From IMG/VR virus record IMGVR_UViG_2711768052_000002: a DNA stretch of 37,726 bases; one strand, 5' to 3'. The position numbers and the translations under genes were made by a program. This DNA comes from a virus (Duplodnaviria > Heunggongvirae > Uroviricota > Caudoviricetes). Positions 1 through 17,452 of the stretch are shown piece by piece (position 1 is the stretch's first letter; the number at the start of each line of letters is the position of its first letter). The notes under the pieces were generated by a model, which worked only from the letters and a program-made list of their open reading frames with translations, was not told the origin of the DNA and made no database searches.

Positions 1-142
1 CATATTACGTGGGTAGGATCACGCAGGGGTCGGCCCATTTGAGCTTCAGATAGGAACGTTTGAATTCCTTTCACAAAATACATCACATACTGAACGTGAA
101 CATTCCCACTTTGATCTTAAGGCCAAAAAGTATGCAGGACTA

Positions 143-871
143 ATGATTTTTAGGGATAGCTTGAGAGTATTACCTTATGGTCGAGTAGATAATGATTTCT
201 TCCAGATAGAAGAAAGACGTTCATGGAATGCAGGGCGATATTATTGGTCTAATAGAAGGATTTTTGGTTATATTGGAATTACTCAATCCAGTAATAAAGA
301 GCTGAAAGATAAGTCGGGGAGAGAGGGATTCATAAGAAACCAGGCTGCAAGAGAACTGAAAACTATTATATCTAATTTGTTAACTGAACTTGCTGATAGA
401 TTTTTTGGTTCACGTTCTGATGACCGTAAAGAGCTTTTAGAACAAGTTAAGCGTGAAAAAGAGTTAAGAAAATCTGCTCAACAACAAGCTCGAAAATCAA
501 CACAAAAAAGTTTTTCAGAAGCTTTGAAGAATCAGACACCAGTTCTTGATGCTTCCTTGGAGGCTGTTAAAAGGCTGAAAACTAAGCTTGATAAAACTGA
601 TGGTTCGTTAGATTTAAACTATCTTAAAATTATAGACAGTGATCTTACAAACTTAGATGCGTTGCGCAGTGAAATTAAAACGCCTATCAAACCTCCAAAA
701 CTTGGAATGTATGAAGAGAAATATAGAGACTACAGAGATAAATTTAATGAGTTCTCTGCGTATATTCTACAAATGAAGTTAGCAATTAATAAACTTGATT
801 CTGAATTAAATAAACTTGAGCCTTCATTGTCAGCGAAAAATCACCTTGAAAAAAAATCAAGGTATTATTAA
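143..871 (+). CDS. N-terminal coiled-coil/sensor-like segment of a histidine-kinase-like protein (probably the 5' part of one gene continued in 816..1862 after a frameshift)
   Basis: ATG at 143 follows an in-frame stop at 14..16; Lys/Glu-rich heptad-like sequence (ELLEQVKREKELRKSAQQQARKS); ORF ends right after an A8 run (~848..855) while the downstream histidine-kinase frame is already open from ~810. Confidence 0.45.
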   Translation: MIFRDSLRVLPYGRVDNDFFQIEERRSWNAGRYYWSNRRIFGYIGITQSSNKELKDKSGREGFIRNQAARELKTIISNLLTELADRFFGSRSDDRKELLEQVKREKELRKSAQQQARKSTQKSFSEALKNQTPVLDASLEAVKRLKTKLDKTDGSLDLNYLKIIDSDLTNLDALRSEIKTPIKPPKLGMYEEKYRDYRDKFNEFSAYILQMKLAINKLDSELNKLEPSLSAKNHLEKKSRYY

Positions 872-1862
872 TTCTAAACTAACTAAGTTTAATAACACGA
901 TAGAGGAGAAGATACATTCTCTTTTAAAAAAATGGGCCGATGAAATAAAGGTTGATCGAAGTGATTATTATGCTAAAACTATATCAGTTGTTGATTCAAT
1001 AGATAATGATTCACAAATTGAAAATGTGTTTAATTTGCTCGATAGTTTATATGTTGAGTCAGTTGATACCCTAACTTTCAAATATCAATCAATAATAAAA
1101 GGTCTCGATAGATTATTTGAAGGTATAAACTTAGATTCAGCATTCTCATTATCTGAAGAAGAACGCTCATATTTTGAAGAAAAAGCTAAAAGTTTAAACG
1201 CGCTTGCACAGTTAGGTATTAGTGTTGAGATAATATCTCATGAACTTGAAGAAATGGATTCTATGGTAACCAGAGGACTAAACTCTCTTCCTACTTCTGT
1301 AAAAGAACACCCTGGTTTTTCATTGGCGTTAAATGCTCACAGATCGCTTACTCAACAAATACGTTTCTTATCACCTTTGAAAATATCAGGTTATCAATCC
1401 AGGCAGAGAATAACTGGAAAAAATATCATGGATTATGTCCTGAAGTTCTTTGGGGAGCGTTTCGAACGGCAACGAATAACTATTGAATTTAGTGAAGAGT
1501 TTAAGCAAATCGCAATAACAGATATACCATCAAGGATCTATCCTGTTTTTACTAATATTATCAACAATGCAATGTATTGGGTCAGTCTGTCAAATAATAG
1601 GCTCATAAAGATTGGTTTTGTGAATTCTTTGGTTATCATAGCAAATTCTGGTCCGGCAATTGATACCGATGATATCCCGCGACTATTTGAACTATTTTAT
1701 AGCAAAAGAGCAAATGGACATGGGGTAGGTCTGTATCTATGTCGAGAAAACCTTGCTGTTGCACATCATAAAATATGGTATTCAGAACCTGATGAAGGCG
1801 ATAACTATTTAATAAAAGATGGCGCTAATTTTGTGATCCAGTTCAATGGAGTGGAGTTCTAA
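816..1862 (+). CDS. histidine kinase catalytic core (HisKA-like H-box + HATPase_c/GHKL ATPase)
   Basis: H-box-like IISHELEEMDS; N-box-like FTNIINNAMYW; G1/F/G2 region ANSGPAIDTDDIPRLFELFYSKRANGHGVGLYLCRENL. Track start is a TTG; the first ATG in this frame is ~145 codons in, so the true N-terminus is probably supplied by ORF 143..871. Confidence 0.6.
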   Translation: MSLHCQRKITLKKNQGIINSKLTKFNNTIEEKIHSLLKKWADEIKVDRSDYYAKTISVVDSIDNDSQIENVFNLLDSLYVESVDTLTFKYQSIIKGLDRLFEGINLDSAFSLSEEERSYFEEKAKSLNALAQLGISVEIISHELEEMDSMVTRGLNSLPTSVKEHPGFSLALNAHRSLTQQIRFLSPLKISGYQSRQRITGKNIMDYVLKFFGERFERQRITIEFSEEFKQIAITDIPSRIYPVFTNIINNAMYWVSLSNNRLIKIGFVNSLVIIANSGPAIDTDDIPRLFELFYSKRANGHGVGLYLCRENLAVAHHKIWYSEPDEGDNYLIKDGANFVIQFNGVEF

Positions 1863-1863
1863 T

Positions 1864-3612
1864 ATGACAGTGGCAAATTATAATTCTCTTGTCCAGAAAA
1901 CTTTCTGCGAAAATGCAATTCGTTCCGTTGTCATGATTGATGACGATTTTCTGACGTATTCTGAATCAATCAGGGCGTTGAATAACGAAGTTGATTTAGA
2001 CTACAACAAAATTGACTCATCTAAACGAGCCGCTACTCTTGAGAGCTTTTTTCAATCTAAAAATATGATTTGTGATGTTGACAATGGTTCTGTTAATTTC
2101 GATGTGGATCGGATTAGAAAATCAGATCTTATTATTGTAGATTATCATCTTGATAATAATGCACCTGATAAAACACTTAAACCATTACAAGATTTGAAAG
2201 ACTCCGATCATTTAAATATGATTGTAATATATACTAGAGAGAATTTAGAAACGGTTTGGATGCAGATATCATCGACTCTCAAAGGTGCTCTGGATATCAA
2301 CAGCTTGATCATTGACTACGATAATGAAGATGTCCAAAGTTATTGGGAAGACGTTGTATTACCGAACTTAAATGATAATGGTAATAAAGCTCTCACAAGA
2401 GATGAAACAATAGCCTATATTAAAGACAGTAAGCCTTGTAGAAGAATTAAAAGATTAATACATGATGATGCTGTGTTGGAGGATCAAAAGGATAAAAACT
2501 TCATTGCAAAAATGATTGCAGAATATGCTGTGTCTAGAAATGCAATTATTTCTAGCAACACATCTGGCAATGTCATTCGGGGTGATGAAAGCGGAGTAAA
2601 ATGGATTCAATGTGGTAATATCTTTGTCTCCCTATTTCATAAGGTTCAAGATGATCATGAAAACGATGGAGATAGGATTTGGCAAACTCTCAATGATTCT
2701 CTCATTGAATGGAAACCATCTTATTATCAGTTAATAAAATCTGAAATTCAGAATGCAATCGAAGCTGAGGCTTTATCTTTTGTAAATCATTTGGCTAACG
2801 ATCATTACGGTCAAGCTGCGTGGTTAAATGAGATATTAAAATCAGACTCGCCTGATATTAGATGTAGAAATATTGACTTTGTATTTGGTAATTTATCAGA
2901 AGAGCTTTATCAAAGACTTAAAAATAATAATACGCTGGATGAATTTATCAAAAGTGTTTTTGATAGCTATTCAAATGAATACGCTAACAGCGGAGTTGCT
3001 GCATTGCTCCAATATTGCTCTTCAAAAATGGATCTGCCATCAAATAATGATACTTATCACGAAATGTATCATGCTTTAAATATGAATTTGTCTTCAAAGA
3101 ATTTTGAAGATGGTCATATTTCTACTGGCACTATTTTCTTTGATACAGAGTCGAACAAATGGTATTTATGTGTATCTGCGGCATGTGATTTGGTTCCTAC
3201 TCAGGGTAACGACCCTCACCATGTAAGATTAAGTCCGCACAGGCTCATTAAAGTTCTGGAGCTTTTTAACGCCAGTCAGAGTAAAGCATTGCCATTTGCT
3301 GAACATTCGAAATATATATATGTAATGCATAAAAATCAAAGAAAATATCTCTCTATTTTCGAAGGGGATAAAACGCTTCCTGTTGTTGATTATATGGTGG
3401 TGTTGAATCATGGAACAACAGTTGATGGCGAAGAAAAAAATATTATTTCTGCCGTGTTTTTAAGTAATATGGATGGCAACGTGCAAAATGTTCCTGTCCG
3501 ACTCAAACTTAAATCTCAACTGAGAACTGGTTATGCAGAAAGATATCAGGCTATAGCGTCTCAGTATAGCTCAAGGATTGGTGTGGATTATGTATCAATG
3601 ATGCTACCATAA
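1864..3612 (+). CDS. receiver (REC)-like domain protein with ~430-aa C-terminal domain of unknown function (candidate effector)
   Basis: N-terminal receiver-like motifs: VVMIDDDF (acidic pocket), DLIIVDYHLD (candidate phospho-Asp), MIVIYTREN (conserved Thr). Start placed at ATG 1864, just after the upstream stop with GGAG upstream; track alternative is ATG 1846. No recognisable motif in the C-terminal two thirds. Confidence 0.55.
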   Translation: MTVANYNSLVQKTFCENAIRSVVMIDDDFLTYSESIRALNNEVDLDYNKIDSSKRAATLESFFQSKNMICDVDNGSVNFDVDRIRKSDLIIVDYHLDNNAPDKTLKPLQDLKDSDHLNMIVIYTRENLETVWMQISSTLKGALDINSLIIDYDNEDVQSYWEDVVLPNLNDNGNKALTRDETIAYIKDSKPCRRIKRLIHDDAVLEDQKDKNFIAKMIAEYAVSRNAIISSNTSGNVIRGDESGVKWIQCGNIFVSLFHKVQDDHENDGDRIWQTLNDSLIEWKPSYYQLIKSEIQNAIEAEALSFVNHLANDHYGQAAWLNEILKSDSPDIRCRNIDFVFGNLSEELYQRLKNNNTLDEFIKSVFDSYSNEYANSGVAALLQYCSSKMDLPSNNDTYHEMYHALNMNLSSKNFEDGHISTGTIFFDTESNKWYLCVSAACDLVPTQGNDPHHVRLSPHRLIKVLELFNASQSKALPFAEHSKYIYVMHKNQRKYLSIFEGDKTLPVVDYMVVLNHGTTVDGEEKNIISAVFLSNMDGNVQNVPVRLKLKSQLRTGYAERYQAIASQYSSRIGVDYVSMMLP

Positions 3613-3684
3613 TTATTATATTTTAGGCGTGGTGATTTTTTTTTCGCCATGCCTATTTTATATTTATCATCACAATGATGTTGT

Positions 3685-4101
3685 TTATTTTTGTTTAAGT
3701 CTTCTAAGCTTCATGCATTCTAATGAGAATAATAATAGAGTTGTGCTGTATATAAAGCCAGAGTTAGTTAATAACTTTAAATTTAATGCTTCAGGATTTT
3801 CACTGAGAAAGTGAAAGGCATAAACTAAGTATACAGCTAAAGTAGCCGTTCCAATTGTTGGTCCAATATCGCCTTGATCATGAGGTTCAAGGTTTACATT
3901 GAACTTGAAGATTAGCCATTCAAATCCCCAAGTAAAAAAAACAACTAATATCATGGCTGCGAATAATTTCGCGATGTTATCTGCTGATGGATTCATCAGA
4001 ACAGATTGTTTCTGAAAAAATTCACAAAGTGAGAGTCCGAAAAAAATAAAAAAAAGTGGTCTGGAACTAAATTTTTCAAAAACTTTGAATAGGGTTTCCA
4101 T
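3685..4101 (-). CDS. small integral membrane protein, hypothetical
   Basis: 138-aa ORF with 3-4 hydrophobic stretches (LFFIFFGLSL, AAMILVVFFTWGFEWLIF, TATLAVYLVYAF, IYSTTLLLF); AT-rich; convergent with the kinase/receiver pair. Confidence 0.45.
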   Translation of the reverse strand: METLFKVFEKFSSRPLFFIFFGLSLCEFFQKQSVLMNPSADNIAKLFAAMILVVFFTWGFEWLIFKFNVNLEPHDQGDIGPTIGTATLAVYLVYAFHFLSENPEALNLKLLTNSGFIYSTTLLLFSLECMKLRRLKQK

Positions 4102-4139
4102 TTTCTTTACCTTCAGGATTATATTAGCTATTCTGATAC

Positions 4140-5411
4140 TTAGGCTACCAGAGCATTTGATCTTTGAGCTTGAACGTAATCACTCCACCATTGCATCAAA
4201 CTCTGTCGCTCTATCAGATATTCTGCACGATTGTATGCTGCGATAATTTCATCTTTTTTCGAGTGGGCAAGCGCTGCCTCAAGAACTTCAGCTCTGAATT
4301 TACCAGACTCCTCTGCCGCTGTTCGTGCAATAGAACGCATACCGTGAGCTACAAGCTCGCCTCCGAACCCCATTCGGATGATAGCTGCGTTGGCTGTTTG
4401 TTCATGCATATGATTAAGAGGCGCTTTTATGCTGGGGAAAACCCATTCTCTATGCCCACTTATTGATTTCATTAATTCAAGGATGCGCAAAGCTTCTTTA
4501 CTCAAAGGAACTTTGTGAAGCTTTTTCATTTTCATGAAATCAGCAGGAATGTTCCAAATGCTGTTGGTTGTATCAATATCAGACCACCTTGCGCGAACGG
4601 CTTCACCCGGACGAACCCATGTCAACAATTGCCATTCAATTAGCATACGTGTTTCCAACCGGATTGACGCATTCGTCAAAGATTCCATAAACCTTGGCAA
4701 TTCGCTTGGGGGAAGGGCAGGCATATTTTGCTTTTTTGGTTTACTGAATCTTTGACCAAGGTTGTCAGCCGGGTTGAACTCAATAAGTTCTTCAGTAGCT
4801 GCCCACCGGAAGATTTCATTCAGACGTGAAATGATACGGCGTAGAGTTTCCAATACGCCTCGTTGCTCAATAGGATCAAGGTGTTGTTTTAAGAGCTTAG
4901 GTCGGATCTCATTGATAGGGACATTACCCAGACCGGGAAAGACATTTCTCTCTAAGCTGCGCCAGATGTCTGCTGCATGGTCTTGTGAGATACCTGATGT
5001 CTTTACCTTCTCATCTAACCATTTCCGCGCTACGGCTTGGAGAGTGTGCTCAGTAGCACTCTTTAATGCCTTCGCCTTATCGTTGTTATGGATTTGGGGA
5101 TCAACACCATTTGCCAGAAAGGAGAGATATTCATCACGTAAGGCTCTGGCTCTTGCAAGGGTAAGGTGAGGATATGTCCCAAGGCTCATTTTGGTTCTTT
5201 TCTTGCTCACTGGTACTGCATACCTGAAATACCAATTTTTCTTGCCTCCTTTCGCCAAAGGAGCGATTCGTAGAATCAGACCATCACCGTCAAACAAGTT
5301 GATTTCTTTATCGGCTGGCTTGGTGCTTTTGATTTCAGTGTCAGTGAGCTTCTTAGCGATTTTTGCCATTTTGGGACCCTCGGTTTTTGGACCCTTCTTA
5401 GTGGGTCCCAT
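4140..5411 (-). CDS. int: tyrosine-type site-specific integrase, P4 family
   Basis: N-terminal arm-binding signature LTDTEIKSTKP...LFDGDGLILRI...KNWYFRY typical of P4/CP4-57 IntA-type integrases; C-terminal catalytic region (HGMRSIARTAAEESG, AAYNRAEY); sits next to the ssrA 3' fragment. Confidence 0.9.
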   Translation of the reverse strand: MGPTKKGPKTEGPKMAKIAKKLTDTEIKSTKPADKEINLFDGDGLILRIAPLAKGGKKNWYFRYAVPVSKKRTKMSLGTYPHLTLARARALRDEYLSFLANGVDPQIHNNDKAKALKSATEHTLQAVARKWLDEKVKTSGISQDHAADIWRSLERNVFPGLGNVPINEIRPKLLKQHLDPIEQRGVLETLRRIISRLNEIFRWAATEELIEFNPADNLGQRFSKPKKQNMPALPPSELPRFMESLTNASIRLETRMLIEWQLLTWVRPGEAVRARWSDIDTTNSIWNIPADFMKMKKLHKVPLSKEALRILELMKSISGHREWVFPSIKAPLNHMHEQTANAAIIRMGFGGELVAHGMRSIARTAAEESGKFRAEVLEAALAHSKKDEIIAAYNRAEYLIERQSLMQWWSDYVQAQRSNALVA

Positions 5412-5534
5412 TCAGGGTGCCATAACTCGTAGTTCTCAGCAATTCTCACTGGACGACAATAGACGTAAAAAAGCCCGCAGAGCTTGTGCTGTGTGGGCTT
5501 AGTAGACTTCATTGAACTTCAAACAACTAAAAAG

Positions 5535-5567
5535 TGGTGGAGCTGGCGGGAGTTGAACCCGAGTCCG
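5535..5567 (-). other. ssrA: 3'-terminal fragment of ssrA (tmRNA) - putative att core repeat
   Basis: Minus-strand reading CGGACTCGGGTTCAACTCCCGCCAGCTCCACCA matches the recalled 3' acceptor/T-arm end of E. coli tmRNA (one mismatch) including CCA; flanking sequence on the 5' side does not continue as tmRNA, so only the terminal ~33 nt are present. Confidence 0.75.
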
Positions 5568-5578
5568 AATTTTTTTAA

Positions 5579-6397
5579 CTATCTGTTTTTATTAAAATCA
5601 TGCTCATCCATAAAATCTGCGTAGCTTTTGCGTATCCTTTCTAGGACAACCTGTGTCCAACACTGTTTGGATGTGAAAAGAATATCTATGTCTAAAATTA
5701 GATCTAAGCCATTTCCGTAAAAAGATACGCTCTTAAATTCTGTTGTGAAAATTTTCTTTCTTTTCTTATTGTTTACATCTCTATATTCAAGGATAAGGTC
5801 CGGCCCTATAAACGATGAGATGGAGGTGGTTACAAGATAATTACCAATTAATTCTGGCACCAATGGGGGAAATGGTATGGTTGTTTTCTCTTTGTCTTTA
5901 ATATTCGGAGTTATAAATTCTATCAAAGTTCCTTTTTTTTGAAAGCTATTATGTTTTTGCGGACCTCTACCAAAAATATCAACATTCAAGAAGTTATTGT
6001 TGTCTTTGATTGTAAAAAACTCTTCATTTTGCAAAAATATCTCATGTGATTTTTGTGTGTTGTTATTATCTATTTTGAATTTGTTTATCTTAATATATTT
6101 CTCATACTCTTCAGACCAGTAGTGATTTATTTTTATAGCTGGGCCAAGACCTATGTTGAGAAGCTCTATATTCAAAGTGGTTGGTGATATTTCTATGTTC
6201 TTAAATAATTTCAAGTTATCTCTGTGCATCCATGTGAATTTTGTATTCTTAGGTAAAATTTGAGGTTTGTTTGAAATTATTCTTTGCTGCCATGTTTGGT
6301 ACATTGCAAAAAATGCAATTATGACACTTATTATGGCTATGAAGTCGGTAGTGGTAATTGAGTAACCTAACATTTTTATTAAATCTGTGTTATTCAT
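5579..6397 (-). CDS. hypothetical membrane-anchored protein (single N-terminal TM helix), AT-rich cargo gene
   Basis: 272-aa ORF; N-terminal hydrophobic helix FIAIISVIIAFFAMY then a Lys/Asn-rich soluble domain; located between the ssrA att fragment and the prophage integrase. Confidence 0.5.
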   Translation of the reverse strand: MNNTDLIKMLGYSITTTDFIAIISVIIAFFAMYQTWQQRIISNKPQILPKNTKFTWMHRDNLKLFKNIEISPTTLNIELLNIGLGPAIKINHYWSEEYEKYIKINKFKIDNNNTQKSHEIFLQNEEFFTIKDNNNFLNVDIFGRGPQKHNSFQKKGTLIEFITPNIKDKEKTTIPFPPLVPELIGNYLVTTSISSFIGPDLILEYRDVNNKKRKKIFTTEFKSVSFYGNGLDLILDIDILFTSKQCWTQVVLERIRKSYADFMDEHDFNKNR

Positions 6398-6436: not shown

Positions 6437-7612
6437 TTAATTAGTACAATTTATCAAATGATTGTGTGTGCTATTGTTATCATAATCTTTAAGATAACGG
6501 CCGTAATGCCTAAATAGCATTTCTGGTCCTTTATGCCCCATTTGAGCGGCTAACCAAAACAAATTAACACCTTGACTAATGTGTTTTGTAGCAAATGTAT
6601 GTCTAGTTTGATAAGGATTACGGTAACGGACTCCGGCTTTACGTAAAGTTGGCACCCATGCCTTCTTTCTTATGGCGTCTGCGCTGGCCCAAGGTTTATT
6701 GGTTTTTGGATCTTCAAAGACAGTCGCGTCCTTCATGAAAGTGAACGGTTTCTGATTTATTAGTGCAGACATTGCTTCATCTGTCAGTTCAACTTTTCGA
6801 GTACCTGCTTTTGTTTTGGTACCTTTGATTACACCAACAACACTGGCGCTCTGGACGTGGGCAGTCCTCCCTACAAAGTCAATATCACGCCATCTAAGGG
6901 CACATAATTCAGAACTACGCAGACCTGTATTTATAGCGAACCGGAACAGATTCTCCCATTGTTTGTTTCCGGCTGCTGCTAGTAATGCATCAACTTCTGC
7001 TGGTGATAGCGGATCAACCACGTAGCGGCTTTCTGCTTCTGACTTATCACTTTGGTAGCGCGAAGCAGTTACCAACGATACGGGGTTAATTTGAAGTACC
7101 CCATCGGTTACGGCTTCATCAAGTGCTGACCGCAGGAAAGATAACTGGTTGCGAATTGTTTTTAAGGTCGTTTTCTGGCTTTGAATCCACGCTTTCAGGA
7201 TTGCTGGTGTTAATTCACTTGCAGAGCAAATGTGGAGTGAGGCTAACGCACTACGGCATTTTTTATAACCACCAATCGTAGAGGGTGAAAGTTTTCTCGT
7301 TTCGCAGATTTCAAGGTATTCGTCCAAGTACATTTTTACCGTTTTGCCTGCAGCAGCATTACCAAAAATTTTCAAACGAGCAGAACGGGGAAAATATTCC
7401 GCATAAATGAATGTTCCCCTTTCGATCTTATTATGAATTTCACCGAGTGTGCGCTCGGCGTATTTTATGTTCTTTGGTGTTACTTCCAGATTGGAAAGAG
7501 GCTCACGACATTTAACTCCTTTGTAGGTGAAAGTTATATTGATCGTTTCGCCCTGGCGGTGTTTCCTGATTGTTACGCCGCGCGGTAGTTTGAGCAGTTT
7601 TGTCTGGCCCAT
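6437..7612 (-). CDS. int: tyrosine-type integrase, lambda family
   Basis: 391 aa; catalytic-domain motifs (GLRSSELCALRWRDID, HKGPEMLFRHYGRYL with catalytic Tyr context, RHTFATKHI); 5' end overlaps the upstream xis-like ORF as in lambda. Confidence 0.9.
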   Translation of the reverse strand: MGQTKLLKLPRGVTIRKHRQGETINITFTYKGVKCREPLSNLEVTPKNIKYAERTLGEIHNKIERGTFIYAEYFPRSARLKIFGNAAAGKTVKMYLDEYLEICETRKLSPSTIGGYKKCRSALASLHICSASELTPAILKAWIQSQKTTLKTIRNQLSFLRSALDEAVTDGVLQINPVSLVTASRYQSDKSEAESRYVVDPLSPAEVDALLAAAGNKQWENLFRFAINTGLRSSELCALRWRDIDFVGRTAHVQSASVVGVIKGTKTKAGTRKVELTDEAMSALINQKPFTFMKDATVFEDPKTNKPWASADAIRKKAWVPTLRKAGVRYRNPYQTRHTFATKHISQGVNLFWLAAQMGHKGPEMLFRHYGRYLKDYDNNSTHNHLINCTN

Positions 7613-9195: not shown

Positions 9196-9870
9196 TTAGG
9201 CTTTGATTTTGTATCTTCTTGGTTTTCCTGAGAAAATCACTGTACCAATTATAGAGCAATTACCGTTGATCTTAATGTAAGGCTCAGGCCAGTTTGGGTT
9301 TAACGCTTTGAGATAACGCTGTGTCCCATCTTCTATCAACCTTTTGAAGGTGGTTTCGCCTGTATCGTGCATCAATGCAATAACGTCGTCACCGTGGCAG
9401 GCAGGTACTTCAGGATCGACAAAAATCATGTCTCCCGGGCGGTACTCATCAATCATTGAATCACCTATCACCCGCAAGATATAAGTCATTTCCCCACAGG
9501 GTACAGGGCAGGGATACGTTTCTGCTGTGCTCAAATCAACCTCAGAATATCCAACTTCTTTCCATGCTCCGGCCTGTACCCATGATATGACAGGGACTAA
9601 TGTGATTTGTTTATTAGTGATTGAAACATCAGGTTTTTTTGTGATGTTCGTTGTCTGGTGTTCTTGATCGAGCCATCCGACAGGCAGGTCGAAACATTTT
9701 TCGATGTGTCGTGCCATGCTGTCACCGATATTTTTAGTAGCACCATCTCCCATAAACCTGCTGGTCTGGGTTGGCTCGCGATCAATCATAGTGGCAAAGG
9801 AAGAATTCCCGCCAACACCATCTCTCAGTTTTCTGGCGTTAGACCGCCGGATGTCATGGATTGTTTTCAT
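9196..9870 (-). CDS. cI: CI-like phage repressor (N-terminal HTH, C-terminal LexA/S24 peptidase autocleavage domain)
   Basis: C-terminal S24 signature VIGDSM with downstream Lys-containing segment; N-terminal DNA-binding region; divergent from a cro-like gene across an operator-bearing intergenic region. Confidence 0.85.
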   Translation of the reverse strand: MKTIHDIRRSNARKLRDGVGGNSSFATMIDREPTQTSRFMGDGATKNIGDSMARHIEKCFDLPVGWLDQEHQTTNITKKPDVSITNKQITLVPVISWVQAGAWKEVGYSEVDLSTAETYPCPVPCGEMTYILRVIGDSMIDEYRPGDMIFVDPEVPACHGDDVIALMHDTGETTFKRLIEDGTQRYLKALNPNWPEPYIKINGNCSIIGTVIFSGKPRRYKIKA

Positions 9871-12042: not shown

Positions 12043-12533
12043 TCATGAGTCTTTTGAATGACGTTCAGAAATTCATTGAAGCCCATCCGGGGTGTACTTC
12101 CGGAGACATTGCGGATGCTTTTGCAGGTTACTCACGACAGCGCGTTCTGCAGTCAGCAAGCAAGTTACGTCAGAGTGGGCGTGTGGCTCACCGTTGTGAA
12201 GGGGATACACGCAGACATTTCCCGCGCCTGACTGAGAGAGCGCAGGAGCCGGAACCACAACCAGTTCGTGAAACCAGACCTGTGCGCAATTTCTATGTCG
12301 GCACTAACGATCCCCGGGTGATTTTGTGCCTGACCCGCCAGGCTGAAGAACTGGAGTCAAGGGGCTTATACCGTCGTGCTGCAACCGTGTGGATGGCGGC
12401 ATTCCGTGAAAGCCACTCCCAGCCAGAACGAAACAATTTTCTGGCGCGTCGTGAGCGGTGCTTACGGAAAAGCAGCAAGCGCGCTGCATCGGGTGAAGAG
12501 TGGTATCTGTCAGGGAATTACGTGGGGGCTTAA
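12039..12533 (+). CDS. hypothetical basic protein (possible DNA-binding, follows replication initiator)
   Basis: 164-aa Arg-rich ORF beginning at GTG overlapping the O-like stop; no confident family assignment. Confidence 0.45.
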   Translation: MIMSLLNDVQKFIEAHPGCTSGDIADAFAGYSRQRVLQSASKLRQSGRVAHRCEGDTRRHFPRLTERAQEPEPQPVRETRPVRNFYVGTNDPRVILCLTRQAEELESRGLYRRAATVWMAAFRESHSQPERNNFLARRERCLRKSSKRAASGEEWYLSGNYVGA

Positions 12534-13186
12534 TGAGTAATAAATATTGCCAGGCGCTGGTGGAACTGCGGAACAAACCAGCCCATGAACTGAAGGAAGT
12601 GGGCGATCAGTGGCGCACGCCGGACAACATTTTCTGGGGAATTAACACCCTGTTTGGCCCGTTTGTTCTGGATCTGTTCACTGACGGTGATAACGCCAAA
12701 TGTGCTGCGTATTACACGGCGGAAGACAACGCGCTGGCGCATGACTGGTCAGAACGTCTTGCGGAGCTTAAAGGGGCTGCCTTTGGTAATCCCCCATACA
12801 GCCGCGCCAGTCAGCATGAGGGACAATACATCACCGGCATGCGTTACATCATGAAACATGCCAGTGCCATGCGTGATAAGGGTGGGCGCTATGTTTTCCT
12901 GATCAAAGCTGCCACCAGCGAAGTGTGGTGGCCGGAAGATGCAGATCATATTGCTTTTATTCGCGGGCGTATTGGTTTTGAACTGCCTGCCTGGTTTATC
13001 CCGAAGGATGAGAAGCAGGTGCCGACAGGCGCTTTCTTCGCTGGTGCTATTGCTGTTTTCGACAAGACCTGGAAGGGACCGGCAATCAGCTACATCGGGC
13101 GCGATGAACTTGAGGCATGTGGTGAGGCCTTTCTGGCGCAGGTTCGCCAGCAGGCGGAAAAACTGGTCAGGGAGATGGCGGCATGA
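12533..13186 (+). CDS. phage N6-adenine DNA methyltransferase (Dam-like, orphan)
   Basis: Catalytic motif FGNPPYS (NPPY/DPPY motif IV of N6-adenine methyltransferases); start placed at ATG overlapping the upstream stop (TAATG); no adjacent restriction endonuclease gene. Confidence 0.8.
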   Translation: MSNKYCQALVELRNKPAHELKEVGDQWRTPDNIFWGINTLFGPFVLDLFTDGDNAKCAAYYTAEDNALAHDWSERLAELKGAAFGNPPYSRASQHEGQYITGMRYIMKHASAMRDKGGRYVFLIKAATSEVWWPEDADHIAFIRGRIGFELPAWFIPKDEKQVPTGAFFAGAIAVFDKTWKGPAISYIGRDELEACGEAFLAQVRQQAEKLVREMAA

Positions 13187-13509
13187 CGACATTAACTCAA
13201 TGCCAGCAGCAGGTGCTGGATATGCTGATTTCTTATCAGAAAGAGCGTGGCTTTCCGCCAACCAATCAGGAGGTGGCAACCATGCTGGGATACCGTTCGG
13301 TGAATGCAGCGGTGGAGCATCTTCGCGCACTGGAGAAAAAAGGCGTCATCACGATAAAGCGTGGCGTGGCCCGGGGGATAACGCTTCATACCGCGGTGAA
13401 GGACGACGACAGCGAGGCGGTCGGGATTATCCGCGCACTGCTTGCCGGTGAGGAAAACGCAAGGCTGCGTGCAACCCACTGGTTACATGAGAGGGACCTG
13501 AAAGTATGA
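13183..13509 (+). CDS. LexA N-terminal DNA-binding-domain-like protein (no peptidase domain)
   Basis: TQCQQQVLDMLISYQKERGFPPTNQEVATMLGYRSVNAAVEHLRALEKKGVI parallels E. coli LexA residues ~1-70 (recalled ...[52 protein letters not shown]...); the ORF stops after 108 aa with no S24 motif. Confidence 0.65.
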   Translation: MTTLTQCQQQVLDMLISYQKERGFPPTNQEVATMLGYRSVNAAVEHLRALEKKGVITIKRGVARGITLHTAVKDDDSEAVGIIRALLAGEENARLRATHWLHERDLKV

Positions 13510-16120: not shown

Positions 16121-17452
16121 TTACTGGATGAATGACATTTGATTAATATATTTTATCAATAACTCTCTGGGTGTAGTACTCCAAAAATTTAGGTGTTCAT
16201 AATCAGTATAAACATTGGTGAATTTTTTAAGTTCTTCATCACTTTTAGGGGCAAATCGCTCATTAAGAGTAATACTGTCTTTAATTATTCCGAAGAATAC
16301 AATAGATATTTCAGGAATTTGCGATCTTCTCTCATAAGAATAAGGTATTTCTTTTATGTTAAGCAGATCTGCTAAATGAGATATAGATTCTGCGGTAATT
16401 TCTTGTTTTAGTTTTTCCTTGTCACCAAAGCAATGTATGAAGACAGCTACGACAAAGATCTTATTTATTAAAGGATCACTGTTTTTGTACTCATCGTCGT
16501 TTAATAGTTGAAAAATGTTAAGATTGCGTGAAAAAGTTTGTGTTTCACGTAAGGATAAGTTGGTTCGTTGAATTAAATCACGGATAAATCTACCAGATAA
16601 ACTATTAATTTCATTTAATGATTTTGTCTTGTCTACAAGGTAATTCCAATATATAACAGATGTTTTACATACGACGTGACCATTTATTAAACATGTGTCT
16701 GGAAGCGTGATGGTATATTTTATAAACTTGTCAAGATACTTTTGTGAGTTAATACTATAACCATAAATATGATTTATCGATGCTTTTAATTGTTCTGTGT
16801 TTGTAACTAAAATAAAAAAGACATTATTGATGTCAAAAATGTGTTTTATTGTTTCAATGACATTTGTTGAAAAACTCGGCTTACATCGGTCTAATTCATC
16901 AATTATAATTACTATCTTTTGACTTTCTGAAATGCTTTCGATACAAGATTTAAGTGAATTTATGTTTTTCTCTGATTCCATATGGTCTTCAAGCAAATTT
17001 TCAATAGTCCCATCTATTGCTGCATTGCTTGCTTTCTTCATCGCATCTTGGAATTCTTCGGAAACTTCACTAGCCTCCTGTCGTAAAAACCAACCTGCAC
17101 CAGCTTTTAGTACCGTTTTTAAACCAAAGCGAATTGCAGGAAGAGATCTCTTAATGAAGTGTTGTTTTTCTTCCTCAGGTAAAATGCTGGCAATTGCAGA
17201 GGTTATGAGAAGTAATGGAGATTCTGCATGATCCCCTTTAAAGGCATCAATATAAACAACTTTAGATTCAGTTTCTTGCTCAATAATGAGATTTTTCAGT
17301 TTGATACTAAATTCTGTTTTCCCTGTTCCCCATGCGCCGTCTATTACCAGTGGTGAAATGTCTGCCTCTGGTTTTAGCAACTTGATGATATTTTCAGCGA
17401 TGTTTCTGCGTTGGAACTCGTCACGTTCAGTGAAAGATAGTGTATCTAACAT
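16121..17452 (-). CDS. KAP-family P-loop NTPase (moron cargo)
   Basis: Walker A in KAP form GAWGTGKTEF and Walker B IVIIIDELDRCKP (the DELDR signature typical of KAP NTPases); AT-rich; opposite strand to the phage operons; inserted between Q and the late terminator. Confidence 0.7.
   Translation of the reverse strand: MLDTLSFTERDEFQRRNIAENIIKLLKPEADISPLVIDGAWGTGKTEFSIKLKNLIIEQETESKVVYIDAFKGDHAESPLLLITSAIASILPEEEKQHFIKRSLPAIRFGLKTVLKAGAGWFLRQEASEVSEEFQDAMKKASNAAIDGTIENLLEDHMESEKNINSLKSCIESISESQKIVIIIDELDRCKPSFSTNVIETIKHIFDINNVFFILVTNTEQLKASINHIYGYSINSQKYLDKFIKYTITLPDTCLINGHVVCKTSVIYWNYLVDKTKSLNEINSLSGRFIRDLIQRTNLSLRETQTFSRNLNIFQLLNDDEYKNSDPLINKIFVVAVFIHCFGDKEKLKQEITAESISHLADLLNIKEIPYSYERRSQIPEISIVFFGIIKDSITLNERFAPKSDEELKKFTNVYTDYEHLNFWSTTPRELLIKYINQMSFIQ

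Follow-up and report, generated by a model that had tools for sequence, protein, structure and literature searches.

The closest described relatives of the locus considered here belong to the HEF_HK / Response_reg_2 family, which Bellieny-Rabelo et al. (2021; PMC8011034) linked to C5 methylases and paraMORC ATPases, with no function tested. About 83% of the HEF_HK family members carry a HATPase_c_3 domain, and a "group 2" architecture without it (their figure 6) accounts for 34 of 222 sequences; the E. coli protein WKA_RS00445 served as a structural representative (PMC8011034). No experimental characterisation of the intact C5 methylase/paraMORC-histidine kinase/receiver operon was found in the literature searched.

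Three other kinds of loci serve for comparison. Simple-sequence contingency loci are exemplified by the phase-variable restriction-modification genes of Haemophilus, Neisseria and Helicobacter, and ordinary frameshift pseudogenes are those flagged by PGAP. Genes that make use of transcriptional slippage are the third kind: Baranov et al. (2005) saw selection against slippage-prone runs in many bacteria from a length of about 9 nt, and took a run length conserved among homologues as a sign of purposeful slippage use (PMC1088944).

The window, meaning the whole stretch of DNA analysed, corresponds to contig CXXR01000064.1 (37,726 bp) in its entirety, from the draft E. coli assembly GCA_001268205.1. 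Near its left end a histidine kinase gene is split by a run of eight A residues, for which a first-pass annotation had proposed a sequencing or assembly error, a genuine inactivating mutation or a phase-variable switch of a costly system. The A8 allele is probably a genuine and recurrent slippage frameshift in an already truncated gene, and so a case of ordinary pseudogene decay, not a genetic switch.

The split kinase gene and its surroundings

The window begins within an IS3 element. The remains of an ssrA-integrated island follow (22-5569), comprising the kinase remnant, a receiver gene, a 138-aa ORF and a P4-type integrase (Table 1), and a second element, an e14/Mu-tail-like prophage with its own integrase, extends from 5569 onward. 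No tmRNA gene is present anywhere in the window.

Table 1. Window features and homopolymer tracts. The allele counts in the last six rows come from looking up the exact products that +/-1 changes would give; they count contigs, not events or rates, clonal lineages inflate them, and only identical sequences are counted.
Feature	Position	Strand	Remarks
IS3 right inverted repeat, final 21 bases	1..21	+	Alignment to the end of the 1258-bp IS3 at L001 4764-6021; contig begins within the IS
paraMORC-type histidine kinase, 3' remnant	22..1862	+	Codons 377-988; 612 of 988 codons left; also frameshifted at A8
ORF1, 242 aa	143..871	+	ATG encodes Met 417, an internal residue of the 988-aa protein
ORF2, 348 aa	816..1862	+	TTG start, no Shine-Dalgarno; HEF_HK ~1209-1385, HATPase_c ~1527-1802
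Perfect 7-bp inverted repeat, ACCTTGA / TCAAGGT	843..863	+	A run in the loop; DNA fold -5.2 kcal/mol, z = -3.1
A8 run	849..856	+	+1 insertion in an A7 tract, codons GAA AAA AAT (E-K-N)
Response_reg_2 protein, 582 aa, intact	1864..3612	+	Cognate receiver partner; C-terminal ~400 aa uncharacterised
Terminator-like hairpin	~3624-3655	.	Loop is the intergenic T9 run 3636..3644; between the convergent receiver and 138-aa genes
138-aa hypothetical island protein	3685..4101	-	Kept beside the system in intact islands
P4-type tyrosine integrase of the ssrA island	4140..5369	-	NCBIfam NF007246, 440.6 bits; Pfam Arm-DNA-bind_3 + Phage_integrase
ssrA 3' end copy, 35 nt (attachment site)	5535..5569	-	Match to single-island genomes ends at 5569
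Kinase tract, A7	849		A6 on 105 contigs, A8 on 95, A9 on 0
Kinase tract, A7	926		A6 on 117 contigs, A8 on 6
Kinase tract, A6	504		A5 on 22 contigs, A7 on 3
Kinase tract, A6	1418		A5 on 8 contigs, A7 on 0
Kinase tract, T6	401		T5 on 2 contigs, T7 on 0
Receiver-gene tract, A7	3434		A6 on 6 contigs, A8 on 2

The run of eight A reported by the first-pass annotation is real, but it occupies 849-856, one base to the right of the interval (about 848 to 855) first given. The upstream frame does end just past it, as had been described: the TAA stop of ORF1 (869-871) lies 13 nt beyond the run, and its last five codons (KSRYY) are out of frame. The kinase-core frame (+1) had been said to be open from about 810 with a TTG start and no ATG for some 145 codons; it stays open from about 807 onward, with the TTG at 816 as its first start codon and the first ATG (1254) 146 codons in. 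This ATG lies 3' of the codon for the phospho-acceptor His, and a product begun there would be without the His. Removal of one A yields a 572-aa ORF with the junction ...NHLEKNQGIINSKLTKF..., annotated in E. coli as an "ATP-binding protein". The single protein of about 570 aa that had been expected is thereby recovered, but it is itself a 5'-truncated remnant, residues 417-988 of 988.

A relative with the frame unbroken is at hand in strain CFSAN061769. Across window positions 1-4200 only the A8/A7 difference and a T9/T8 difference (3636-3644) distinguish the two, the rest being identical; one further mismatched base lies at the island edge. CFSAN061769 annotates a single CDS, WP_000577254.1, across both ORFs. 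ORF1 and ORF2 are thus consecutive portions of a single protein and do not lie side by side by chance.

The two halves differ in content. ORF1 is a linker in which Pfam finds no family even at E <= 1. ORF2 holds HEF_HK (PF19191, 26.2 bits against a cut-off of 24.1) with the H-box ISHELEE, and HATPase_c (PF02518, 44.7 bits), whose sequence matches those of solved histidine kinases, 3a0r and 3a0t among them. A PDB sequence search with the receiver protein gave no match at E <= 1. NCBIfam yielded only sub-threshold matches for the kinase and none for the receiver protein, and no significant family match for the 138-aa protein emerged from the NCBIfam, Pfam and PADLOC models. Among the PADLOC models the kinase found no match and the receiver protein only an insignificant one (E = 0.0027), while the methylase of the intact islands matches the generic type II, Druantia and DISARM methylase models. 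From this outcome, the system is not among the catalogued defence systems of PADLOC 2.0.

The sequence around the tract is rich in A and T without being exceptional in its runs: the island is 66% A+T, and its seven A/T runs of at least 7 nt compare with 4.1 +/- 2.0 expected under a first-order Markov model (P = 0.11), which is no enrichment. The A run sits in the loop of a perfect inverted repeat. This repeat is probably dictated largely by the conserved L-E/D-K-N-Q-G peptide, judging from the sequence, and it might play a part in slippage. A shorter inverted repeat, CTTGAT/ATCAAG, is kept in orthologues of 83% identity.

The prophage (5535-37726) lies in tandem with the island at the ssrA attachment site and is e14-like with a Mu-type tail module. 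It encodes a LexA-like repressor (9196-9870) and an integrase of its own (6437-7612). A KAP-family P-loop NTPase (236 bits; 16121-17452, minus strand) lies between the Q antiterminator and the lysis genes, and a 272-aa ORF without a Pfam match (5579-6397, minus strand) adjoins the attachment site; both positions are typical for accessory cargo genes. Overlapping prophage ORFs at 12500-13509 were considered as further frameshifts and rejected, their sizes being those of normal annotated genes in XH990.

The IS3 junction and the intact operon

Homology to an intact Salmonella island (L010) begins at window position 21/22, equivalent to L010 position 9127 and to codon 377 of the kinase, directly beside IS3. 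Orthologues of 988 aa are 99% identical across all 612 remaining residues. In such a 99%-identical orthologue the HATPase_c_3 (paraMORC) domain occupies residues 28-137; the window has no HATPase_c_3 because its coding sequence begins at codon 377, beside IS3. Homologues of 988-997 aa carry HATPase_c_3, HEF_HK and HATPase_c, with a Dcm-type methylase upstream. In Salmonella, Klebsiella and Serratia the Dcm-type C5 methylase gene overlaps the start of the kinase gene, and the kinase and receiver genes follow. This intact operon resides on mobilisable ssrA islands with a relaxase and the same integrase, the methylase being present in the intact islands L010-L013. Neither the window nor any of the E. 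coli loci examined has the upstream C5 cytosine DNA methylase.

Where IS3 is present it lies at the deletion junction (window 1-22; L001:4730-6040). No 3-bp target duplication surrounds it (TTATCT / IS3 / CGCAGG), as expected if the IS stands at a deletion junction. Genomes without IS3 show two scars, GAGATG/CGCAGG and GAGATGCG/CGCAGG (L002:6150-6250; L026:2140-2240), which suggests imprecise loss of IS3 after the deletion. On this comparison of sequences, an IS3-associated deletion took the C5 methylase and the first 376 codons of the kinase, and did so before the A was inserted. The 572-aa ORF is the longest ATG-initiated ORF left. A promoter scan at the IS3-kinase junction returned 18 sites against 18.0 expected.

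Could a protein of 572 aa nonetheless be a natural form, as annotations in other species would have it? This was considered and rejected. Two loci, L014:3993-6983 (Salmonella, GCA_009468465.1) and L015, have a kinase with an annotated length of 572 aa, counted from the internal Met at which the E. coli remnant also begins. The L014 ORF is 98% identical to a 994-aa orthologue. It is open for 996 codons, so the 572-aa annotation is a start-site artefact. Other 572-aa entries, in Pectobacterium, Klebsiella, Yersinia and Morganella, may be the same artefact, possibly spread from the abundant E. coli protein.

Tract length among strains and the readings of A8

The first-pass annotation had suggested comparing tract length in orthologous loci and looking for fused and split versions in databases. 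Both versions exist, with A7 as the normal state and A8 as a rare derived allele. Among 5,426 complete E. coli genomes, 613 match the region and 561 contain the tract segment. An A7 query is exact in 530 of these 561, the remainder being mostly one substitution away, whereas an A8 query is exact in only two, CAU16175 and PEC240; A7 and A8 are thus not both common. In both A8 genomes PGAP has already marked the gene as a "frameshifted" pseudogene in RefSeq, where the allele is therefore already known as such, in keeping with the earlier suggestion of a genuine inactivating mutation. The split arrangement occurs in less than 1% of complete genomes; the orthologues are one continuous ORF. The intact 988-aa orthologues (99% identical; Salmonella, Klebsiella, Serratia) have A7, and orthologues of about 83% identity have an interrupted tract, GATAAAAAT (A5). 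Together with the dominance of A7, these observations indicate that A7 is ancestral and that the tract has not been maintained over evolutionary time.

These data suggest the following course of events. A methylase / paraMORC-histidine kinase / receiver operon first lost its methylase and 376 kinase codons, including HATPase_c_3, in the IS3-associated deletion. Slippage during replication would then have added one A to the A7 tract (GAA AAA AAT), a heritable +1 change that cuts the leftover 572-codon ORF after codon 237. The domain-less 242-aa linker is so parted from the DHp (HEF_HK) and HATPase_c domains, which have no credible start codon, and function is presumably lost. A8 is one of many homopolymer frameshift alleles segregating in the remnant.

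The tract has a varied history. A6, A7 and A8 are all present among related strains, which thus differ in tract length and in whether the ORF is on or off. Several haplotype backgrounds that are otherwise mostly A7 include the exact 242-aa product of A8. A8 is seen whether or not IS3 is present, and whether site 2183 or site 2408 reads C or T, and A7 is seen on all the same backgrounds. In four-gamete tests that paired the A run with site 2183, with site 2408 and with IS3 presence, all four gametes are found in each. Either the tract length changed repeatedly, therefore, or recombination shuffled the tract. Core-gene SNPs downstream (smpB to bamE) were too few to assign the A8 contigs to lineages.

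Nor is this run alone in the gene. The look-up counts in Table 1 reveal frameshift alleles at every run examined, commoner at the longer runs, and this multi-tract pattern is that expected of plain replication slippage in little-constrained DNA. Other lesions accompany A8 in its lineages: PEC240 carries the nonsense change L301*, and L005 a 1-bp deletion at 1875 (window-equivalent) near the receiver-gene start, as a result of which that gene is called 18 codons shorter. Independent disabling mutations segregating at the locus thus include frameshifts at five kinase tracts and one receiver-gene tract, L301* and IS insertions. In a small sample, the kinase remnant shows 8 non-synonymous and 5 synonymous substitutions, the receiver gene 5 and 3. 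The nonsense change in PEC240 arises at the second kinase A7 run (926-932), which T925A lengthens to A8 while creating the stop. The A8-carrying L020 has an in-frame 3-bp insertion near the receiver-gene end (window-equivalent 3586). Both ORFs stay open in more than 94% of genomes. Weak purifying selection may be acting on the truncated kinase, or the remnant may simply be young, as copies differ by only about 0.1%.

Decay of this kind might also be favoured by selection, if the truncated kinase, deprived of its sensor/ATPase half and its partner methylase, were deregulated and mildly harmful and so knocked out repeatedly at its homopolymers, where mutation comes most easily. Several independent inactivating kinase alleles (A6 and A8 at 849, A6 at 926) each occur on about 100 contigs, and the receiver-gene A7 tract has far fewer, 6 and 2. 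However, this comparison of kinase with receiver is biased, an exact match over 532 aa on one haplotype being far stricter than one over 242 aa, and the great majority of genomes (about 94-99%) keep the 572-codon ORF open. A toxin-like fold was not confirmed by Foldseek. Adaptive loss is therefore unlikely, and the tract-length alleles appear to behave as neutral slippage products.

A homopolymer error in a draft contig from a strain that is truly A7 would leave a similar trace. The sole differences from CFSAN061769 within 1-4200 are indeed two homopolymer lengths, each one base longer (A8/A7 and T9/T8), as such an error would give. However, the exact 242-aa product of A8 is found on 95 public contigs (NCBI, ENA and Logan assemblies) and indexed in 170 collection blocks, and the exact 348-aa product on 38 contigs. 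In L016 and L018, which come from unrelated, independent samples, A8 stands on a haplotype identical or nearly so to that of the window. T9 at 3636-3644 is itself a common natural allele, exact in 50 of 561 complete genomes, with T8 in most others and T7 in L019. The prophage ORFs of the contig match the sizes of intact annotated CDSs, with no frameshifts and no homopolymer-error pattern across the contig. Taken together, these points make a private error unlikely, and the proposal of a sequencing or assembly error loses most of its force.

Could the run instead be a switch? Under the phase-variation proposal, slipped-strand mispairing would turn the kinase-receiver module on at A7 and off at A6 or A8. 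A6 and A8 do both exist, changes are recurrent or reversible across haplotypes, and the tract lies in a hairpin loop. Against this, A8 is confined to 2 of 561 complete genomes, A7 dominates, and the tract is a mere 7 nt, has A9 on no contig and is interrupted (A5) in orthologues of 83% identity. The island shows no excess of A/T runs, other runs in the gene act likewise, and polymorphism is greater at the intergenic T8/T9 run (T9 in 50 of 561). The tract also lies mid-gene, in a remnant that has neither methylase nor sensor domain. The idea of a phase-variable switch of a costly system is accordingly very unlikely. A bolder variant, in which the sensor-less kinase phosphorylates the intact receiver and A6/A7/A8 form a low-frequency switch, or a target of selection, for a toxin-like effector without its methylase, is a long shot. 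If true, a phosphorelay linked to restriction-modification would have been domesticated as a stochastic switch in many E. coli strains with the locus.

Programmed recoding, in which a full-length product would be regained by slippage of RNA polymerase on A8 or by a +1 frameshift of the ribosome, is the least probable reading, though some low-level rescue by the polymerase may occur. A/T runs are known sites of RNA-polymerase slippage (PMC1088944), and an mRNA with one A fewer would be back in frame. However, the split is not conserved (<1% of complete genomes), the run of 8 nt falls short of the roughly 9 nt at which selection against slippage-prone runs becomes evident, and run length, whose conservation among homologues is the mark of purposeful use (PMC1088944), is not conserved here. 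Frame restoration requires a +1 shift or an mRNA one A shorter. A slip of the ribosome by -1 on A_AAA_AAA was rejected, since it leads into the wrong frame and to a stop 10 codons later.

Comparison with known systems

On the reading preferred here, that of slippage in a decaying remnant, the frameshift itself matters little and behaves like neutral slippage. More consequential is that the 572-aa "ATP-binding protein" so widespread in E. coli is a deletion remnant, whose abundance seems to have spread wrong starts onto intact orthologues of 994-996 codons in other species. The worthwhile target for work on phage defence would be the intact three-gene operon, not the broken E. coli copy.

The locus resembles the contingency loci in having a coding mononucleotide run, in that a change of run length turns the ORF off and in belonging to a gene family associated with restriction-modification. 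Unlike them, it has a short tract of 7 nt that is not conserved in orthologues, the off state is rare and other runs behave alike. The likeness to ordinary PGAP-flagged frameshift pseudogenes is closer: a one-base change in a run splits an ORF that is intact in relatives, and nothing essential sets the window gene apart, save that it had already been 5'-truncated. As in the "pseudo-pseudogenes" of transcriptional slippage (PMC1088944), an A run stands at the junction of two ORFs and slippage could in principle restore the frame; unlike those genes, the run here is 8 nt and not at least 9, and neither its length nor the split is conserved in homologues.

With the HEF_HK / Response_reg_2 family (PMC8011034) the window shares HEF_HK and HATPase_c followed directly by a Response_reg_2 gene. 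Unlike the family, it has neither the methylase nor the HATPase_c_3 half, because of the deletion, and its kinase gene is frameshifted as well. The intact orthologues, like the family at large, show the predominant arrangement of HATPase_c_3, HEF_HK and HATPase_c with an upstream C5 methylase. The published group 2 class may include deletion remnants and mis-started annotations, and the E. coli remnant may inflate this short-architecture class; compared with group 2, the E. coli form is a deletion remnant and not a natural short form.
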